Below, in pieces: positions 18,673 through 40,744 of a stretch of DNA of 42,927 nt. The DNA lies in sequence record LR595868.1. One strand, 5' to 3'. The first letter of the stretch is position 1. Each line of letters opens with the position of its first letter. Made by a program: the position numbers and the translations under genes. The DNA comes from Escherichia virus mEp460_4F5. The notes beneath the pieces are model-generated. The model was not told the DNA's origin and searched no databases. It saw only the letters and a list, made by a program, of their open reading frames with translations.

Positions 18673-20733
18673 ATGGCAGTACAGATTTCAGGCGTGCTGA
18701 AAGACGGTGCAGGAAAACCGATACAGAACTGCACCATTCAGCTCAAAGCAAAACGTAACAGCACCACGGTTGTGGTGAACACGGTGGCCTCAGAAAATCC
18801 GGATGAAGCCGGACGTTACAGCATGGATGTCGAGTATGGCCAGTACAGCGTTATCCTGCTGGTTGAAGGTTTTCCGCCTTCACATGCCGGGACCATCACC
18901 GTGTATGAGGATTCTAAGCCGGGGACGCTGAATGATTTTCTGGGCGCTGCAACAGAAGATGATGTTCGTCCGGAGGCACTGTATCGTTTTGAAAAGATGG
19001 TGGAAGAGGTGGCACGCAACGCTGAAGCCGCCTCTCAGAGCGCAGCGGCAGCAAAGAAATCAGAAACAGCAGCGGCATCGTCCAGGAACGCGGCGAAAAC
19101 ATCAGAGACGAATGCAGGTAACAGCGCGAAAGCGGCAGCTTCTTCAAAAACAGCCGCACAAAACGCAGCAACAGCGGCAGAACGTTCAGAGACAAATGCC
19201 CGTGCGTCAGAAGAAGCCTCCGCAGACAGTGAAGAGGCTTCCCGCCGTAATGCAGAGTCAGCCGCTGAAAATGCCGGAGTCGCCACCACAAAAGCGCGGG
19301 AGGCTGCAGCAGACGCAACAAAGGCCGGGCAGAAAAAGGATGAGGCTCTGTCGGCAGCGACACGAGCTGAAAAGGCGGCAGACCGCGCAGAAGCCGCAGC
19401 GGAAGTGACTGCAGAGCCCTATGCGAATATAGTGCCGCCGCTGCCTGATGTGTGGATACCGTTTAACGATTCACTGGATATGATTGCGGGTTTTTCTCCG
19501 GGCTATAAAAAAATAGCTATTGGTGACGATGTGGTTCAGGTCGCCAGTGATAAACAGGTTAATTTCAGTCGCGCATCAACGGCAACATATATCAACAAAT
19601 CTGGCGAACTGAAAACGGCGGAAATTAATGAGCCGCGATTTGAGTGTGATGGCCTGCTTATTGAGGGACAAAGAACGAACTACATGCTCAATTCGGAAAG
19701 TCCAGCCAGCTGGGGGAAGTCATCAAACATGGATGTGCCCGAAACCGGGACGGATAGTTTTGGTTTTACTTATGGAAAGTTTGTCTGCAACGATTCTCTG
19801 GTTGGGCAAACTTCGGCTATTAATATGGCATCAATTGCTGCAACAAAGTCAGTTGATGTCTCAGGCGATAACAAGTACGTGACAACCTCATGCCGTTTTA
19901 AAACAGAACGACAGGTAAGGTTACGTATACGGTTTGATAAGTATGATGGTAGTGCAACAACTTTTCTTGGCGATGCGTACATTGATACGCAAACGCTTGA
20001 AATTAATATGACAGGTGGTGCTGCCGGCAGAATTACGGCACGAGTCAGGAAGGATAAGACCACGGGCTGGATTTTTGCAGAGGCAACGATTCAGGCAATT
20101 GATGGTGAGTTAAAAATAGGCTCTCAGATACAGTATTCTCCTGAGCAGGGTGGGGCAACAGTATCTGGTGACTATATTTATCTTGCCACCCCACAAGTAG
20201 AGAATGGGCCGTGTGTATCATCATTTATTATTTCAGGAGGCAGCGCAACGACAAGAGCCAGTGATTTGGTTAGTATCCCCACCAGAAATAATCTTTATAA
20301 GTTACCATTTACTTTTTTACTTGAGATTCATAAAAACTGGGATATTGCACCAAACGCCGCACCCCGCGTGTGGGATATAGCAGCAGCCAATACCGGGCAA
20401 TCAGCAATTGCAGCAATCAACAGAGGTAGTGGTAAGTTATATATGAGTCTGTCAAACCCTTCAGGCTCGTATGTTAATAGCGCAGCGACAGATGTATTTA
20501 CAGAGAAAACCACATTTGGATGTATTGCAAAAGCTGATGGTCACTTTCATGTGGTGACAAATGGTAAAGCGGTTAATGAAGTTTATTGTGAATATAATGG
20601 CGTGACCGCTGATAAAAATATCCGATTTGGAGGGCAGACGAATACTGGAGAACGACATCTGTTTGGCCATATTCGCAATTTCCGCATATGGCATAAAGAA
20701 TTAAATGACAGGCAATTAAAAGAGGTCGTATGA
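18673..20733 (+). CDS. stf: Side tail fibre protein (Stf-like N-terminus, Ala/Ser-rich repeat shaft, unrecognised C-terminal domain)
   Basis: N-terminal roughly 120 aa match the lambda Stf N-terminus (MAVQISGVLKDG ... VEGFPPSHAGTITVYEDS); followed by an A/S/E-rich low-complexity shaft and a roughly 300-aa C-terminal region unlike lambda Stf; GGAG 5 nt upstream of the ATG at 18673. Confidence 0.8.
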   Translation: MAVQISGVLKDGAGKPIQNCTIQLKAKRNSTTVVVNTVASENPDEAGRYSMDVEYGQYSVILLVEGFPPSHAGTITVYEDSKPGTLNDFLGAATEDDVRPEALYRFEKMVEEVARNAEAASQSAAAAKKSETAAASSRNAAKTSETNAGNSAKAAASSKTAAQNAATAAERSETNARASEEASADSEEASRRNAESAAENAGVATTKAREAAADATKAGQKKDEALSAATRAEKAADRAEAAAEVTAEPYANIVPPLPDVWIPFNDSLDMIAGFSPGYKKIAIGDDVVQVASDKQVNFSRASTATYINKSGELKTAEINEPRFECDGLLIEGQRTNYMLNSESPASWGKSSNMDVPETGTDSFGFTYGKFVCNDSLVGQTSAINMASIAATKSVDVSGDNKYVTTSCRFKTERQVRLRIRFDKYDGSATTFLGDAYIDTQTLEINMTGGAAGRITARVRKDKTTGWIFAEATIQAIDGELKIGSQIQYSPEQGGATVSGDYIYLATPQVENGPCVSSFIISGGSATTRASDLVSIPTRNNLYKLPFTFLLEIHKNWDIAPNAAPRVWDIAAANTGQSAIAAINRGSGKLYMSLSNPSGSYVNSAATDVFTEKTTFGCIAKADGHFHVVTNGKAVNEVYCEYNGVTADKNIRFGGQTNTGERHLFGHIRNFRIWHKELNDRQLKEVV

Positions 20734-21008
20734 AAGATTTAACTTTGAAGTTTCATGACAAACTGCAGTTTAAGGCCTTCCTGTCATCTCTTGGCTGGGC
20801 GGAAGATGAAGACCTCCAGAATAAACTGTTAGTTGATGAAATTGGTTTCACCTACACAGAAACAGGGGTAACAGAAGAGGGAGAACCTGTCTGTATCCGG
20901 AATGATGGTTATTTTGTCAACATTCGCATTCTTGATGACTTGTTTGATGTTTCTGTATTCTCTGATTATGTCGTGGAGCTGGAAACACCGCTTCGGGAAT
21001 GGAGCTGA
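20730..21008 (+). CDS. Hypothetical acidic protein, possible tail-fibre chaperone
   Basis: 92-aa ORF translationally coupled to stf by an ATGA overlap; not similar to lambda Tfa. Confidence 0.4.
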   Translation: MKDLTLKFHDKLQFKAFLSSLGWAEDEDLQNKLLVDEIGFTYTETGVTEEGEPVCIRNDGYFVNIRILDDLFDVSVFSDYVVELETPLREWS

Positions 21009-21020
21009 AAGGAGGAAATA

Positions 21021-21308
21021 ATGGATATAAGCCCCTTACTTCATGCACTTTGTGCTGTGGCTGCGCAGATACTGGTTGGTCTTTTTACCGGAAACTGGGC
21101 TTACGGAGCGATAGCCGGTTGTACGTTCTTCATTGCGCGTGAACACACCCAGGCAGAATATCGCTGGATTGAAATGTTCGGGCATGGCAAGCGAATGAAT
21201 ATGCCGTGGTGGGGCGGTTTTGATCCGCGCGCGTGGGATGTGGCAAGCCTGATGGATTTTGCTGTGCCGGTGGTGGCGTGTCTGCTGATCTGGATGTTGA
21301 TCCGTTAA
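21021..21308 (+). CDS. Small integral membrane protein (accessory gene after the tail fibre)
   Basis: 95 aa with about three hydrophobic helices; GGAGG-like ribosome-binding site (AAGGAGGAAA) upstream. Confidence 0.45.
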   Translation: MDISPLLHALCAVAAQILVGLFTGNWAYGAIAGCTFFIAREHTQAEYRWIEMFGHGKRMNMPWWGGFDPRAWDVASLMDFAVPVVACLLIWMLIR

Positions 21309-21325
21309 ATATAAAAAGTAAAAAG

Positions 21326-21358
21326 CCGCAGTAACTTGTCATGATAGGATACTGCGGC
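21326..21358. terminator. Hairpin between convergent genes (probable bidirectional terminator)
   Basis: GCCGCAGTA ... TACTGCGGC, a 9-bp stem with a roughly 15-nt loop, between the membrane-protein gene (+) and the dinI-like gene (-). Confidence 0.35.
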
Positions 21359-21425
21359 TGGCTGGTTAACTTTCGATAGTGCGAGTATTGAATGATTTCC
21401 AGCCGTTACTGATTTTACGTGCTAA

Positions 21426-21674
21426 TTAGTGAACAAACCACTCGTCAGCAGACTCCCAGGTATCTTTCAGAGTTTCCTGAACAAAAGTTTTAGCTGAATC
21501 TTTATCGGCGGTGCGCGTAACAGAAAGGCCATCGTTGCTGGTGGCTTTTACGATCACCTCTACATCGTCATAACGTTTACTGATGCGTCGGGTTAATTCT
21601 TCCTTTAACGCATCCACAGCACCGGTTGGCATTTTAGTCATTTTTTCTTTGGCTATACAGATTTCAATACGCAT
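21426..21674 (-). CDS. dinI: DinI-like SOS-response protein
   Basis: 82 aa; matches DinI (MRIE ... IAK ... GA.DAL..EL.RRI ... ETWESAD.WFV); GAGGGA ribosome-binding site upstream on the minus strand. Confidence 0.85.
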
Positions 21675-21687
21675 AAAAGTCCCTCTA

Positions 21688-21733
21688 TACTGTGTTTGTA
21701 TACAGTATTATTTTTAACTGTATGGATAAACAG
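21688..21733. promoter_or_regulatory. Two tandem LexA (SOS) boxes in the dinI-like promoter
   Basis: TACTGTGTTTGTATACAGTA (about 21688-21707) and AACTGTATGGATAAACAGTG (about 21716-21735); both fit the LexA core CTG-N10-CAG and sit in the 61-bp interval between the dinI start and the int stop. Confidence 0.75.
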
Positions 21734-21735
21734 TG

Positions 21736-22833
21736 TCAAGAGGTCTTATTTCTGCTCTTTTGGAGCTCTTCAAAACGATTATGTAAAGATTTCGGATACA
21801 GTTCGGTATATACCTGCCATAGCACGTTTAATGAACGATGCCCTGTAACTTGGGCGACTTCCTCAATACTAAAGCCAGCCTCAAATAAGCGACTTGCCCC
21901 TTCTCTACGCAAATCATGGTATCGCAGATCTTTAATACCTAATTTGCTTCTTACTCTCTGAAATCCCGCAGTAACAGAAGTGCTGTTATATGGAAAAATG
22001 AATTCCGATTTTTTGGGCTGTCGTTGGACGATATCCCAGGCTTCCCCAAGCAAGGCTACTTTCATGTGGTTGCCTTCCTTTTTGCGTGGATCTTTCCTGT
22101 CTCTTACGAGTATAGATTTTTGTTCTTGGTCGAGATCTTCCCATCGTAACCGGCATACTTCTCCGATTCGCATACAGGACCACACAGAAAATTTGAGGAT
22201 ATCAACGAACGGAATTTTTGAGCATTTATGAGTAGATCGTTGTTGAAGGCCTTCAATGAGCATGTCCAGTTCATCAGATGCTGGTCTACGATTACGACGG
22301 TTTGATTTACCAATCAAACCAAGTTTAAGTAGATATGGACGAGCGCTTTTCGCCGGGTTTGATGTGTAATTAATTCCGTATACAGGTTTGGCCGCATCCA
22401 GAACACTGCCAAGATAACTAACATCGTGGCTGACTGTTGCTGGACCTGCACCAGCGTTGTTTCTTAGCCTACAATGTTCAATTACGTCATTTTCTGTCAG
22501 TTCGGATAGTTTGATCGCGGAGATGTCACTATCCATAAGCAGTTCCAGCACATATCTTTTAGTACGACCTGCTTTACCTCCGGCATTTGGGTCATTTAAA
22601 TATTTGTGTAGTAAGTCACGGACTGTAAGTCCGTCAACTGCATTTGATGATGGAATGCCATATAGATCTAATTCCATCACTTTCTGTGTACCCCATGTTT
22701 TGGCATGGGCATGTTTAGGGAATGTTTTGCTTTCCCTGTAAGTGATAACACCTTTTTCTTTGATAATCACATTACAGCGATAGCGTGGTGTGCCATCGGA
22801 TTTTAGTCGTTTCTCTATGTTATAGTACGCCAT
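21736..22833 (-). CDS. int: Tyrosine integrase
   Basis: 365 aa; C-terminal catalytic region with the R ... H..R ... Y pattern (LRYHDLRREGASRLFEAG ... GHRS ... YTELY); GAGG ribosome-binding site about 8 nt upstream. Confidence 0.9.
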   Translation of the reverse strand: MAYYNIEKRLKSDGTPRYRCNVIIKEKGVITYRESKTFPKHAHAKTWGTQKVMELDLYGIPSSNAVDGLTVRDLLHKYLNDPNAGGKAGRTKRYVLELLMDSDISAIKLSELTENDVIEHCRLRNNAGAGPATVSHDVSYLGSVLDAAKPVYGINYTSNPAKSARPYLLKLGLIGKSNRRNRRPASDELDMLIEGLQQRSTHKCSKIPFVDILKFSVWSCMRIGEVCRLRWEDLDQEQKSILVRDRKDPRKKEGNHMKVALLGEAWDIVQRQPKKSEFIFPYNSTSVTAGFQRVRSKLGIKDLRYHDLRREGASRLFEAGFSIEEVAQVTGHRSLNVLWQVYTELYPKSLHNRFEELQKSRNKTS

Positions 22834-22850
22834 TACACGACCTCGTTATT

Positions 22851-23090
22851 TCGGGTTCCCATAAATCGTGGGAACCTGTGCGGGAACCTAACGCGAGAAA
22901 AATAGCCTGAAATGTTCAAAAATGCACGATAATCCTGAAACACAGAAAACTAATCAAACCAGCGTGATGCCTGAGAAAACTGGCGCTTACTGGAGTTCTC
23001 GGTTTAGCATTGCTCCTATGCTTGATAGGATGTACCGTTTTTGAAAAACAAATAGTTATATACTTTGTGGGAGCCTATTGGGAACCCGGC
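22851..23090. repeat. Cluster of GGGAACC-type repeats upstream of int (candidate integrase arm-type or regulator binding sites; possible attP region)
   Basis: At least five copies in about 240 bp: GGGTTCCC (about 22853), TGGGAACC (22869), CGGGAACC (22881), TGGGAGCC (23067), TGGGAACCC (23079); the first two form an inverted repeat. Confidence 0.4.
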
Positions 23091-30644: not shown

Positions 30645-31271
30645 CTAGAGTTCGTATTGAACTCCTTTGACTACACCAATGATGAGGCAATTACCATTGA
30701 TCGGGATGTTGGGGTACCGGGGATTTAATGGCACTAAAAACTTTTGAGGGCCATCGATAACTAATTTTTTTACTGTGGCTTCGTTTGTTCCATCAAGTCT
30801 AGCGATGACTATTTTTCCATGCCGGGGTTCTGCATCAGGATCTACAATCACTGTTGCGCCTTCTGGTATTGTTGGGAGGCCGTTAGGGTTAGTCATGGAG
30901 TCGCCTTTAACCTCCAATGCAAATGAGTTATCACCAATCTTTAATGATGTATCTACCCACTTGTCTACTTCACTAAACACTTCTGCTGTCCTGCACTCAG
31001 TAAACTGCCCAGCCTGAACCCACGAGATTACAGGAACTCTGCGCATGTTTGTGACGAGTTTGCCTTCAAACTCCGCACCATAAAGAATGTAATCTATTGA
31101 CGTATTGAAGAACTTCGCTAATTTTGAAAGTGCTTCCCCACCAGGGACATTGATGTCTTTCTCCCAGTACCCCACAGCAACGTCACTTACTCCACAAAAT
31201 TTACCCAATTCTTTCTGGGACGTTCTGGTAACTCTTCTCAGAGCTTTTATACGCTGACCAACCGTTTCCAT
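30645..31271 (-). CDS. cI: CI-type repressor (HTH_XRE plus S24 LexA-like peptidase domain)
   Basis: 208 aa; N-terminal XRE-type HTH (GQRIKALR ... SQKELGKFCGVSDVAVGYWE); C-terminal S24 motifs (Ala-Gly cleavage site in WVQAGQF, GDSM serine, KIVIARL lysine); divergent from cro. Confidence 0.85.
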   Translation of the reverse strand: METVGQRIKALRRVTRTSQKELGKFCGVSDVAVGYWEKDINVPGGEALSKLAKFFNTSIDYILYGAEFEGKLVTNMRRVPVISWVQAGQFTECRTAEVFSEVDKWVDTSLKIGDNSFALEVKGDSMTNPNGLPTIPEGATVIVDPDAEPRHGKIVIARLDGTNEATVKKLVIDGPQKFLVPLNPRYPNIPINGNCLIIGVVKGVQYEL

Positions 31272-31368: not shown

Positions 31369-31569
31369 ATGACGACTGACGATATCGAAAGCTACTTCGG
31401 CAGCATTGAGAAAGTTGCTGCTTTTTTCGGCATAACAACTGAAGCCGTTTATCAGTGGCGAAACCGTCCTGGCCAGTTAATTCCAAAAGGACGTGCAGCA
31501 GAGGCTGCATATAGAACTTGCGGACGGTTGCCATTTAAACCTGAGCTTTATGAAAAATCTAATGGATAA
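31369..31569 (+). CDS. cro: Cro-like repressor
   Basis: 66 aa; HTH (AAFFGITTEAVYQWRNR); divergent from cI across the operator region. Confidence 0.7.
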   Translation: MTTDDIESYFGSIEKVAAFFGITTEAVYQWRNRPGQLIPKGRAAEAAYRTCGRLPFKPELYEKSNG

Positions 31570-32191
31570 ATCGATTTACAGAAACCACAGATATGAGGGC
31601 TTAAACGTGGGTAAAGAACCTGAATGGAAAGTTGATAAGCAACCAGCATGGCTGGTGGCAGCAATACGAAGAACGATTGCTGATTTACCTCATGGCTATG
31701 AGGAAGCAGCAGAAATTCTTGGTTTGTATAAATCTGATGATATCACCCCAGCAAAAGATCAATTGCATAACAGACTGCGTAGCGGTGGGGATCAAATTTT
31801 TCCACTTGAGTGGGCCATGGTTTTACAGGATGCCAGTGGTACCAGGCATGTAACGGATGCAATAGCCCGTCGTAGTAATGGGGTGTTTGTGCCGCTGGTG
31901 GTCATTGATGACATTGACAATGGTGACATTAATCAGCGGCTGATGGAGTCAATAGAATGGATTGGCAAGCATTCCCAGTACTTACGCAAGGCAACTGCTG
32001 ATGGAGTTATTGACCAAGCTGAGCGTGAGCAAATCGAAGAGAACAGCTACCAAGTAATGGCGAAGTGGCAGGAGCATTTAACACTGTTATTTCGTGTTTT
32101 TTGTGCGCCGGAAAAGAGTAACGCCCGCGAGTGTGCAGCTCCGGGCGTCGTGGCGTCGATTGCTTCTGGTTGTGGAGAAACTAACGCATGA
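31550..32191 (+). CDS. Early regulatory protein in the cII position (function unassigned)
   Basis: About 213 aa from the ATG at 31550 (alternatives 31493 and 31562); overlaps the cro stop; not recognisably lambda cII. Confidence 0.4.
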
Positions 32192-39691: not shown

Positions 39692-40744
39692 ATGAAAAAT
39701 ACTGTAAAAATAAACAGTGTTGATTTAATCAACGCTGATTGCCTGCATTTTATTCAGTCCCTGCCTGATGATTCCATTGACCTGATTGTTACCGATCCGC
39801 CTTACTTCAAGGTGAAACCTAACGGTTGGGACAATCAGTGGAAAGGGGACGAAAATTACCTTAAGTGGCTGGACCACTGTCTGGCCCAGTTCTGGCGGGT
39901 GTTAAAACCTGCCGGAAGCCTTTACCTGTTCTGTGGGCATCGCCTGGCATCTGATATTGAGATCATGATGCGTGAACGTTTCAACGTGCTTAACCATATC
40001 ATCTGGGCGAAGCCGTCCGGACGTTGGAATGGGTGTAATAAAGAAAGTCTGCGCGCATATTTTCCTGCCACAGAGCGCGTTCTGTTTGCTGAACATTACC
40101 AGGGGCCATATCGCGGCAAAAGTGACGGCTATGCGGCAAAAGAAAGGGAACTCAAACAGCACATAATGGCACCGCTGATATCGTATTTCAGGGATGCTCG
40201 TGCCGAACTGGGTATAACGGCAAAACAAATTGCCGAAGCCACAGGTAAGAAAAATATGGTTTCCCACTGGTTTGGTGCCAGTCAGTGGCAGTTGCCGAAT
40301 GAGGCTGACTATCGGAAGTTACAGGCACTGTTTTCCCGTATAGCGGCAGAGAAGTTTCAGGAACAACAACTGGAACAACCACACCACCAGCTGGTGGCAT
40401 CTTATGATTCACTGAATCGCAAATATTCTGAATTGCTGGATGAGTTTAAATCTCTCCGGCGCTATTTCTCCGTATCAGTCTCCGTGCCTTATACCGATGT
40501 CTGGACGCATAAGCCCGTTCAGTTCTACCCGGGTAAACATCCGTGCGAGAAACCGGCGGATATGCTCCGGCAAATAATCAATGCCAGTAGTCGACCTGGT
40601 GATCTGGTTGCTGATTTCTTTATGGGATCCGGTTCCACAATAAAAGCAGCAATGGCGCTGGGGCGTCGGGCGTTAGGTGTTGAACTTGAGTCAGAGCGGT
40701 TTAATCAGACGGTGAAAGAGGTAAGTGAACTGGTGGGGAAATAA
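39692..40744 (+). CDS. Orphan DNA methyltransferase (N6-adenine/N4-cytosine, DPPY motif)
   Basis: 350 aa; catalytic motif IVTDPPYF near the N-terminus and an AdoMet-binding F.GSGST motif near the C-terminus; no adjacent restriction endonuclease. Confidence 0.8.
   Translation: MKNTVKINSVDLINADCLHFIQSLPDDSIDLIVTDPPYFKVKPNGWDNQWKGDENYLKWLDHCLAQFWRVLKPAGSLYLFCGHRLASDIEIMMRERFNVLNHIIWAKPSGRWNGCNKESLRAYFPATERVLFAEHYQGPYRGKSDGYAAKERELKQHIMAPLISYFRDARAELGITAKQIAEATGKKNMVSHWFGASQWQLPNEADYRKLQALFSRIAAEKFQEQQLEQPHHQLVASYDSLNRKYSELLDEFKSLRRYFSVSVSVPYTDVWTHKPVQFYPGKHPCEKPADMLRQIINASSRPGDLVADFFMGSGSTIKAAMALGRRALGVELESERFNQTVKEVSELVGK

Follow-up and report, generated by a model that had tools for sequence, protein, structure and literature searches.

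Genes for DinI homologues placed under LexA control have been published from Gifsy-1/2/3, PhiKO2, 186 (Tum) and Serratia phage OS31, and the cassette described here therefore belongs to a recognized kind. In the Gifsy-1/2/3 operons, a prophage dinI stands first after a LexA box and is followed by an antirepressor gene (gfoA, gftA or gfhA) and irsA (Lemire et al. 2011, PMC3121763). These dinI homologues are LexA controlled, their SOS loci have been confirmed by experiment, and nalidixic acid induced them 5- to 23-fold (PMC3121763, PMC8072944). Tum of phage 186, a protein of 146 aa, combines an N-terminal antirepressor part with a DinI-like C-terminal half and is made from a LexA-repressed promoter; PSP3 and Fels-2 carry the corresponding split genes. 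PhiKO2 and OS31 have a DinI-like gene that directly follows the tail genes, is oriented opposite to them and has a LexA box shortly 5' of the start, and LexA regulation of the PhiKO2 gene has been reported (PMC7556043). In CFT073, the 'dinI-like' gene c0943 changed along with sulA, umuD and recN (PMC2817434).

The locus studied here lies in a window of 42.9 kb (the whole stretch of DNA that was analysed), in essence one entire lambdoid phage genome. It is near-identical to Escherichia phages PhiR55_1, PhiR40_1 and phiSTEC1575-Stx2k, and mEp460 is closely related. With the dinI gene on the chromosomes of E. coli and other Enterobacterales, the phage gene shares the fold family, a LexA operator over the promoter, a small monocistronic layout and a terminator of its own, but the phage copy is mobile, and its pair of operators at 13 and 41 nt from the ATG contrasts with the usual single one at about 19 nt. 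Like the Gifsy genes, it is a prophage dinI placed first after a LexA box, with a terminator-like hairpin before dinI and a position outside the immunity region, and it is predicted to be SOS induced. Unlike them, it has no antirepressor or irsA gene downstream, two boxes and not one, a phage repressor of the cleavable S24 type, and a position after the tail-fibre genes and beside int, where the Gifsy genes lie 1.3 kb past the replication genes. Its likeness to Tum and the split genes is limited to a LexA-repressed phage promoter and the DinI domain, which makes up the whole of the 82-aa protein. Finally, the PhiKO2 and OS31 genes differ in having a single box and in belonging to other hosts and phage types, and translation of the OS31 gene is coupled to that of a second gene. 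Taken together, the data presented below point to what is probably a self-contained SOS-inducible moron of a dusA-integrating lambdoid phage, in which a LexA-repressed promoter would drive a DinI paralogue acting on RecA*.

A DinI family protein encoded beside the integrase gene

The positions of the cassette elements and of the phage genes that bear on its function are collected in Table 1. The 82-aa product matched Pfam DinI (PF06183) over the entire profile (positions 1-63/63; E=1.1e-19; score 70.9 bits, where the cut-off is 24.2) and PHROG 189, 'RecA filament binding protein DinI' (E=5.7e-31). In a phmmer comparison with E. coli DinI (PDB 1GHH/7YWA), phage residues 1-81 aligned with residues 1-79 at 47% identity over the full length (E=3.7e-13). 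The initial annotation, made from the letters alone, had called the gene dinI-like, and the Pfam, PHROG and structure matches bear this out. Against the NCBIfam equivalog model for chromosomal DinI (NF007893), however, the phage protein reached 73 bits, which is below the cut-off of 111 bits. By these profile and pairwise comparisons, the phage protein is a paralogue of chromosomal DinI, in agreement with the RefSeq name 'DinI-like family protein', and its affinity for RecA could therefore differ from that of the chromosomal protein.

Table 1. Elements of the dinI-like cassette, the adjacent integrase gene and the phage repressor gene, with positions in the window
Feature	Position	Strand	Minus-strand sequence	Details
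Rho-independent terminator	21313..21359	(-)		10-bp stem 21350-21359/21324-21333, 16-nt loop, then UUUUUACUUUUU
3' untranslated stretch	21360..21425	(-)		66 nt, between dinI stop and terminator; conserved in cassette copies
dinI-like CDS	21426..21674	(-)		82 aa, stop included in coordinates; ORF list and Pfam, PHROG and PDB matches
Shine-Dalgarno	21681..21685	(-)	GAGGG	6 nt 5' of ATG; from the minus-strand sequence
Proximal LexA box	21688..21707	(-)	TACTGTATACAAACACAGTA	23.3 bits, highest-scoring 20-mer of the window; 13 nt from ATG
-10 region	21710..21716	(-)	TAAAAA or AAAAAT	17-nt spacer (TAAAAA) or 18-nt spacer (AAAAAT); 10/12 matches in promoter scan
Distal LexA box	21716..21735	(-)	CACTGTTTATCCATACAGTT	20.7 bits; abuts the int stop codon
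-35 hexamer	21734..21739	(-)	TTGACA	sequence and promoter scan
Tyrosine integrase (int)	21736..22833	(-)		365 aa; Pfam Phage_integrase E=1e-20; PHROG integrase families; same-strand upstream neighbour of dinI
CI-type repressor	30645..31271	(-)		Pfam Peptidase_S24 E=1.6e-27, HTH_3 E=3.5e-9

The contacts made by E. coli DinI in the RecA groove comprise a hydrophobic pocket (L13, L21, W71, W77 and F78) and an acidic patch (E24, E69 and D76) (Gao et al., PMC9926225). In the alignment with E. coli DinI, the phage counterparts of the pocket residues are M15, L23, W73, W79 and F80, and those of the acidic patch are E26, D71 and E78, such that all eight contact residues are kept, five of them identical and three conservatively replaced. 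Homology and these conserved contacts suggest that the phage DinI-like protein binds RecA filaments.

A predicted promoter with two LexA operators

The dinI-like start and the int stop are separated by exactly 61 bp (21675..21735). Two sites with a LexA core had been claimed within this gap, and we located both of the quoted 20-mers there, TACTGTGTTTGTATACAGTA at 21688-21707 and AACTGTATGGATAAACAGTG at 21716-21735. The order of elements on the minus strand is ...ACC TCT TGA (which reads TC-TTGACA-C), the distal box CACTGTTTATCCATACAGTT, AAAAATAA, the proximal box TACTGTATACAAACACAGTA and TAGAGGGACTTTT-ATG. The gene had also been described as squeezed against the integrase stop, and this holds to the letter, as the int stop TGA (21736-21738) sits within the -35 hexamer TTGACA. 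The distal LexA box occupies the 17- or 18-nt spacer and touches both hexamers, while the proximal box begins 3 nt past the -10 and so covers the expected transcription start. Independent support comes from the GenBank record of mEp460, in which this promoter is also annotated. Read from these motifs and their spacing, the 61-bp gap is, on the minus strand, a complete sigma-70 promoter with two LexA operators.

Scoring of both sites with a LexA matrix had been suggested as a check. The matrix that we used was an informal compilation of 22 reference sites of E. coli (after Lewis 1994 and Fernandez de Henestrosa 2000). On this informal matrix, the scores of the two boxes, 23.3 and 20.7 bits, fell among those of the 22 reference sites (13-27.6 bits). 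By comparison, no other 20-mer of the window, the three LexA-like sites aside, exceeded 9.6 bits, and the window had a mean of -27 with a standard deviation of 9.3.

We considered whether both CTGT-N8-ACAG matches could be chance palindromes in A+T-rich DNA, upstream of a gene that LexA does not regulate. The intergenic DNA is indeed A+T-rich, and the three matches found in the 42.9-kb window, against 0.42 expected, were reached by two of 100 shuffled windows. However, two of the three fall in this one 61-bp promoter, both score like genuine operators while the next non-LexA 20-mer lies 11 bits lower, their cores are conserved while the neighbouring bases vary, and nearly all dinI family members carry such a box. 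A chance origin is thus exceedingly improbable, and a LexA-controlled promoter remains the reading that we carry forward.

Two LexA operators over one promoter are also found at lexA, recN and the colicin genes, and such pairs as a rule go with tight repression and with induction that is later or steeper. The centres of the two operators are about 21 bp apart at lexA, and the boxes of colicin genes overlap. In the cassette, by contrast, the centres are 28 bp apart (27-29 bp in variants), which is no integral number of helical turns, and cooperative binding of LexA can therefore not be assumed. A literature search for experimental LexA binding or expression results on this particular E. coli cassette returned none.

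Conservation of the operators in related cassettes

To quantify conservation, we used 80 IMG/VR contigs encoding proteins 99-100% identical to the phage protein, which yielded 59 copies that include the upstream DNA. Both LexA boxes were present in all 59 copies, and variation lay outside the CTGT/ACAG cores. Among 38 unique cassette variants, 15 of the 16 core positions were invariant; by comparison, the share of variable positions was 34% at third codon positions and 62% among the bases surrounding the Shine-Dalgarno sequence. The proximal core was invariant throughout; the distal core kept seven of its eight positions, the sole change being CTGT to CTGG. Nearly invariant cores set against variable third codon positions indicate that the LexA boxes are under selection.

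More distant relatives gave a graded picture. PhiR12_2 (71% protein identity) has two boxes at 41 and 13 nt from the ATG. In Citrobacter phage phiNP (56%), two boxes of other sequences lie 40 and 14 nt from the ATG, and TTGACA abuts the distal one. Salmonella SPN3UB (42.5%) has one box 19 nt upstream and a second small ORF after DinI. In JLK-2012 (60%), where the cassette stands in front of the effector gene espV, the boxes are decayed, and LexA control has thus not been kept in every copy. Judged from these alignments, the two-operator layout is old, as it survives to 71% and 56% protein identity although the sequences of the boxes differ.

Across 80 diverse Enterobacterales dinI loci, 72 had at least one LexA box, which makes LexA control a family-wide trait. 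Exactly one box was present at 66 of the 80, usually about 19 nt 5' of the ATG, and the 41/13 two-box layout was found only in the three closest E. coli/Shigella relatives (96-99% identity). On this comparison, the two-operator promoter is a conserved trait of one prophage sub-clade.

The transcript end and candidates for a further product

Downstream of the gene, the RNA fold of 21305-21430 on the minus strand had a free energy of -30.1 kcal/mol (z = -3.8), and none of 200 shuffles was equally stable. The hairpin stems vary between cassette copies yet still pair. No minus-strand ORF of at least 20 aa was found between the dinI stop and the terminator; as the hairpin follows 66 nt past the stop, we predict a monocistronic transcript of about 390 nt. 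Prophages without dinI have the 66-nt stretch and the hairpin as well, and in them homology stops about 6 nt past the expected position of the dinI stop. The 3' element is therefore older than the dinI insertion or independent of it.

Three further candidates in this region were set aside. A nearby minus-strand ORF (21130-21342, 70 aa), considered as an antirepressor gene downstream of dinI, starts in the terminator loop, lies antisense to a conserved gene of 95 aa and does not look like a coding sequence. The 'capsid protein' pseudogene that PGAP places over the 3' UTR is a plus-strand translation that is interrupted by a stop and lacks a convincing coding signal, and we regard it as an annotation artefact. 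Comparison of the 3' element and terminator with the lambda sib/tI region beside attP gave only chance matches of 7-9 nt.

The anatomy of the transcript bears on whether the cassette might be a LexA-controlled antirepressor switch, of the Gifsy dinI-antirepressor-irsA or the 186 Tum type, that would induce the prophage by inactivating its repressor and not via RecA. DinI homologues are linked to LexA-controlled antirepressors in Gifsy-1/2/3, 186, PSP3 and Fels-2 (PMC3121763), and the PHROG 189 profile has 151 positions, only the C-terminal half of which is covered by the 82-aa protein, consistent with Tum-like fusions in the family. Yet the protein is colinear with DinI from residue 1 and so has no Tum-like N-terminal domain, and the transcript ends 66 nt past the stop with no intervening ORF of at least 20 aa. 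The box layout likewise differs, with a single Gifsy-type box at 19 nt but here a pair, 13 and 41 nt from the ATG. The phage repressor is also of the S24 type, as opposed to the non-cleavable repressors of the Gifsy phages: its S24 domain, an Ala-Gly site (VQAGQF), the serine of GDSM and the lysine of VKKL lead us to expect a repressor that cleaves itself in dependence on RecA*. An antirepressor switch is thus contradicted by the anatomy of the cassette, and we consider this reading largely refuted and highly improbable.

[quoted passage not shown] The 3' UTR is conserved among cassette copies, and the region folds more stably than shuffled sequence. On the other hand, no Rfam family was matched even at E<=5, and pairing with the E. 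coli ftsZ leader (-17.8 kcal/mol) was matched by 367 of 500 shuffles. In an alignment of eight sequences, the UTR and the coding region varied to a similar degree (11% and 8% variable columns, respectively). The same 3' element is present in prophages without dinI or the conserved promoter, and the stem GGCUGG/CCAGCC is broken in some copies of the cassette. We therefore judge it very unlikely that an RNA is the key product.

A portable cassette at the prophage end

In five different upstream contexts, homology between copies of the cassette starts exactly at the -35 hexamer, which is thus its upstream mobile edge. With this edge and the one near the dinI stop, the inserted or deleted unit spans approximately 21420-21740 and comprises the promoter with its two operators and the ORF, about 320 bp in all. 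The inserted unit may be the promoter and ORF alone, using a terminator that was already in place.

The cassette was found in 3160 of 5426 complete E. coli genomes (~58%), at up to eight places per genome, and in phage records with different neighbours (128 by DNA match and 132 by protein match). [quoted passage not shown] It is among the most widespread accessory modules of E. coli prophages, a point that the initial annotation had not made, and its gene is routinely annotated as 'DinI-like family protein'.

As in the lambdoid morons for which the concept was framed (HK97/HK022), we observed a single ORF with its own promoter and terminator, inserted between conserved genes and present in some relatives and absent from others; predicted expression from the prophage would be a further likeness. 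Unlike in those morons, the base composition is not distinct from the flanks, with a G+C content of 0.39-0.43 over dinI and int, close to that of the neighbouring DNA, and the terminator element occurs without the gene. Base composition, which we had considered as evidence of a foreign origin, was set aside in this role, as dinI and int resemble their surroundings in G+C. In its edges and distribution, the cassette behaves as a portable moron.

The int-dinI block forms the prophage end in 119 complete E. coli genomes. Homology in E. coli genomes ends at about window position 23025, inside or beside dusA; int and dusA are divergent, and the phage carries a surrogate dusA 5' end (ORF 22922-23044). 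From these junctions, we conclude that the phage integrates into dusA and that attP lies upstream of int. As a consequence, dinI would remain beside int in the prophage, at its extreme end after the tail-fibre genes. An attP between dinI and int, which would part the two genes in the prophage, was rejected, as the junctions lie at ~23025 beside dusA and upstream of int.

We came across no earlier description of the two-operator architecture of the sub-clade, the exact cassette edges or the overlap of the -35 hexamer with the int stop. We regard all three as refinements and not as a new kind of system, with the two-operator layout a modest new detail.

Discussion

In the moron that we propose, LexA dimers on both operators would keep the cassette promoter off in the undamaged lysogen, as the sequence and its conservation suggest. 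Upon DNA damage, RecA* would promote self-cleavage of LexA, and a monocistronic transcript of ~390 nt would be made, ending at the hairpin and U-run. The 82-aa product, which keeps the pocket and the acidic patch, would be able to dock on the L2 loop and on the K232/R243/K245 patch within the RecA filament's groove, and the DinI pool of the cell would thereby be enlarged during SOS.

The effect of a larger pool may be judged from work on E. coli DinI and RecA. At levels stoichiometric with RecA, DinI stabilizes filaments, while high levels inhibit both RecA-stimulated cleavage of UmuD and the recombinase activity of RecA (PMC6590174). Lambda CI occupies the same RecA groove as DinI (PMC9926225). 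As the action of DinI depends on its concentration, an extra copy or copies should compete for the groove with slow substrates, among them UmuD and the phage's own S24-type CI, and this competition would damp or delay mutagenesis and prophage induction. It is plausible, as the initial annotation proposed, that a DinI copy made under SOS control could tune the RecA-dependent cleavage of CI and hence prophage induction. In Gifsy-1 and Gifsy-3, the only phages in which this effect was examined, non-polar deletions of dinI caused no significant change in induction levels or rates (PMC3121763); as the Gifsy phages rely on antirepressors and not on repressor cleavage, this result is not decisive here.

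It is also possible, if rather unlikely, that the cassette mainly benefits the host by lysogenic conversion and not the induction of the phage itself. In this case, extra DinI would stabilize RecA filaments or limit UmuD processing and SOS toxicity, and lineages with the cassette, often in several copies, would better survive DNA-damaging stress. The wide spread of the cassette and its frequent multiplicity (3160/5426 genomes, up to eight places) fit this reading, as do its location in the moron-rich region after the tail-fibre genes of many unrelated lambdoid phages and the fact that the Gifsy dinI deletions left induction unaffected (PMC3121763). Population studies have placed prophage DinI-like genes among accessory genes linked to the evolution of quinolone resistance or to drug susceptibility (PMC10575684, PMC10783064); the link to quinolone resistance (PMC10575684) likewise agrees with a benefit to the host, but these published associations are correlative. 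Host benefit would not exclude an effect on CI cleavage, because both would act via the same RecA groove.

For the cassette as an SOS-inducible phage moron, the finding chiefly confirms a textbook-style arrangement, an SOS box before a dinI homologue. A more far-reaching and improbable extension is that two-operator cassettes in multiple copies (up to eight per genome) together form a shared, dosage-dependent, trans-acting DinI brake on RecA* among co-resident prophages. The pooled prophage DinI would then shift from stabilizing filaments to inhibiting RecA late in a strong SOS response. If so, prophages induced by CI cleavage, Stx phages included, would have a common induction threshold or timer, SOS mutagenesis would be capped, and prophages would engage in a crosstalk in trans distinct from that of the Gifsy antirepressors. 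More generally, if the cassette measurably changed the coprotease activity of RecA*, it would affect the antibiotic induction of toxin-carrying prophages, the mutagenicity of the SOS response and the mutual effects of co-resident prophages.

Integration at dusA and the attachment site

In E. coli genomes, the prophage end corresponds to approximately position 23025 of the window and lies at dusA, the integration target, with int and dusA divergently oriented. As this junction falls at dusA and the phage supplies a surrogate dusA 5' end, attP is placed upstream of int, an arrangement that differs from that in lambda.

Features identified in the window and in related loci
Feature	Location	Strand	Details
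Small conserved ORF	20730-21008	+	92 aa; PHROG 1361
Small conserved ORF	21021-21308	+	95 aa, hydrophobic; PHROG 1443
Hairpin and conserved 66-nt stretch, downstream of dinI	21313-21419		
Copies of this element in dinI-less prophages	L165 2501-2566; L166 2501-2567		
Surrogate dusA 5' end	22922-23044	+	40-aa ORF MHDNPETQKTNQTS...; phage-supplied, within 22834-23044
CI	30645-31271	-	S24-type, 208 aa
Cro	31369-31569	+	P22-Cro-like
CII (CP76)-like protein	31493-32191	+	
DNA adenine methyltransferase gene	39692-40744	+	350 aa
Third LexA-like site	39700-39719	+	TACTGTAAAAATAAACAGTG; 22.3 bits in a matrix of 22 E. coli LexA sites
dinI copy in Escherichia phage JLK-2012	L170 200-300		60% identical

Elements flanking dinI and the immunity region

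The hairpin and 66-nt stretch 3' of dinI, which is predicted to terminate minus-strand transcription, is also present in other prophages that lack dinI, and one of these copies adjoins bioA and ybhB. In the PGAP annotation the element is marked as a pseudogene fragment of a "capsid protein", a label that appears to be an artefact. Two small conserved ORFs occupy the interval from the tail-fibre gene to the dinI terminator, and neither had a match in Pfam.

The immunity region, which encodes the CI, the Cro and the CII (CP76)-like protein, is unlike that of the Escherichia phage PhiR55_1, although the two phages are otherwise near-identical; this difference is typical lambdoid mosaicism.

LexA-like sites beyond the window's dinI promoter

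The third strong LexA-like site of the window overlaps codons 3-9 of the methyltransferase gene, just within the gene start; in the annotation of the related PhiR55_1, this gene lies between Q and the holin gene. The CTGT...ACAG core of the site is retained in Citrobacter phage phiNP and in a Providencia phage with 77% DNA identity, in which internal bases of the site are changed. The site could place the methylase under SOS control or act as a LexA roadblock, or else its retention could reflect codon constraint (T-V ... N-S).

The dinI copy of JLK-2012 adjoins attR and directly precedes espV, which encodes a type III effector. Decay is evident in both LexA boxes of this copy: the distal one scores 13.7 bits and the proximal one is interrupted, which suggests that SOS control has been lost in the JLK-2012 lineage.
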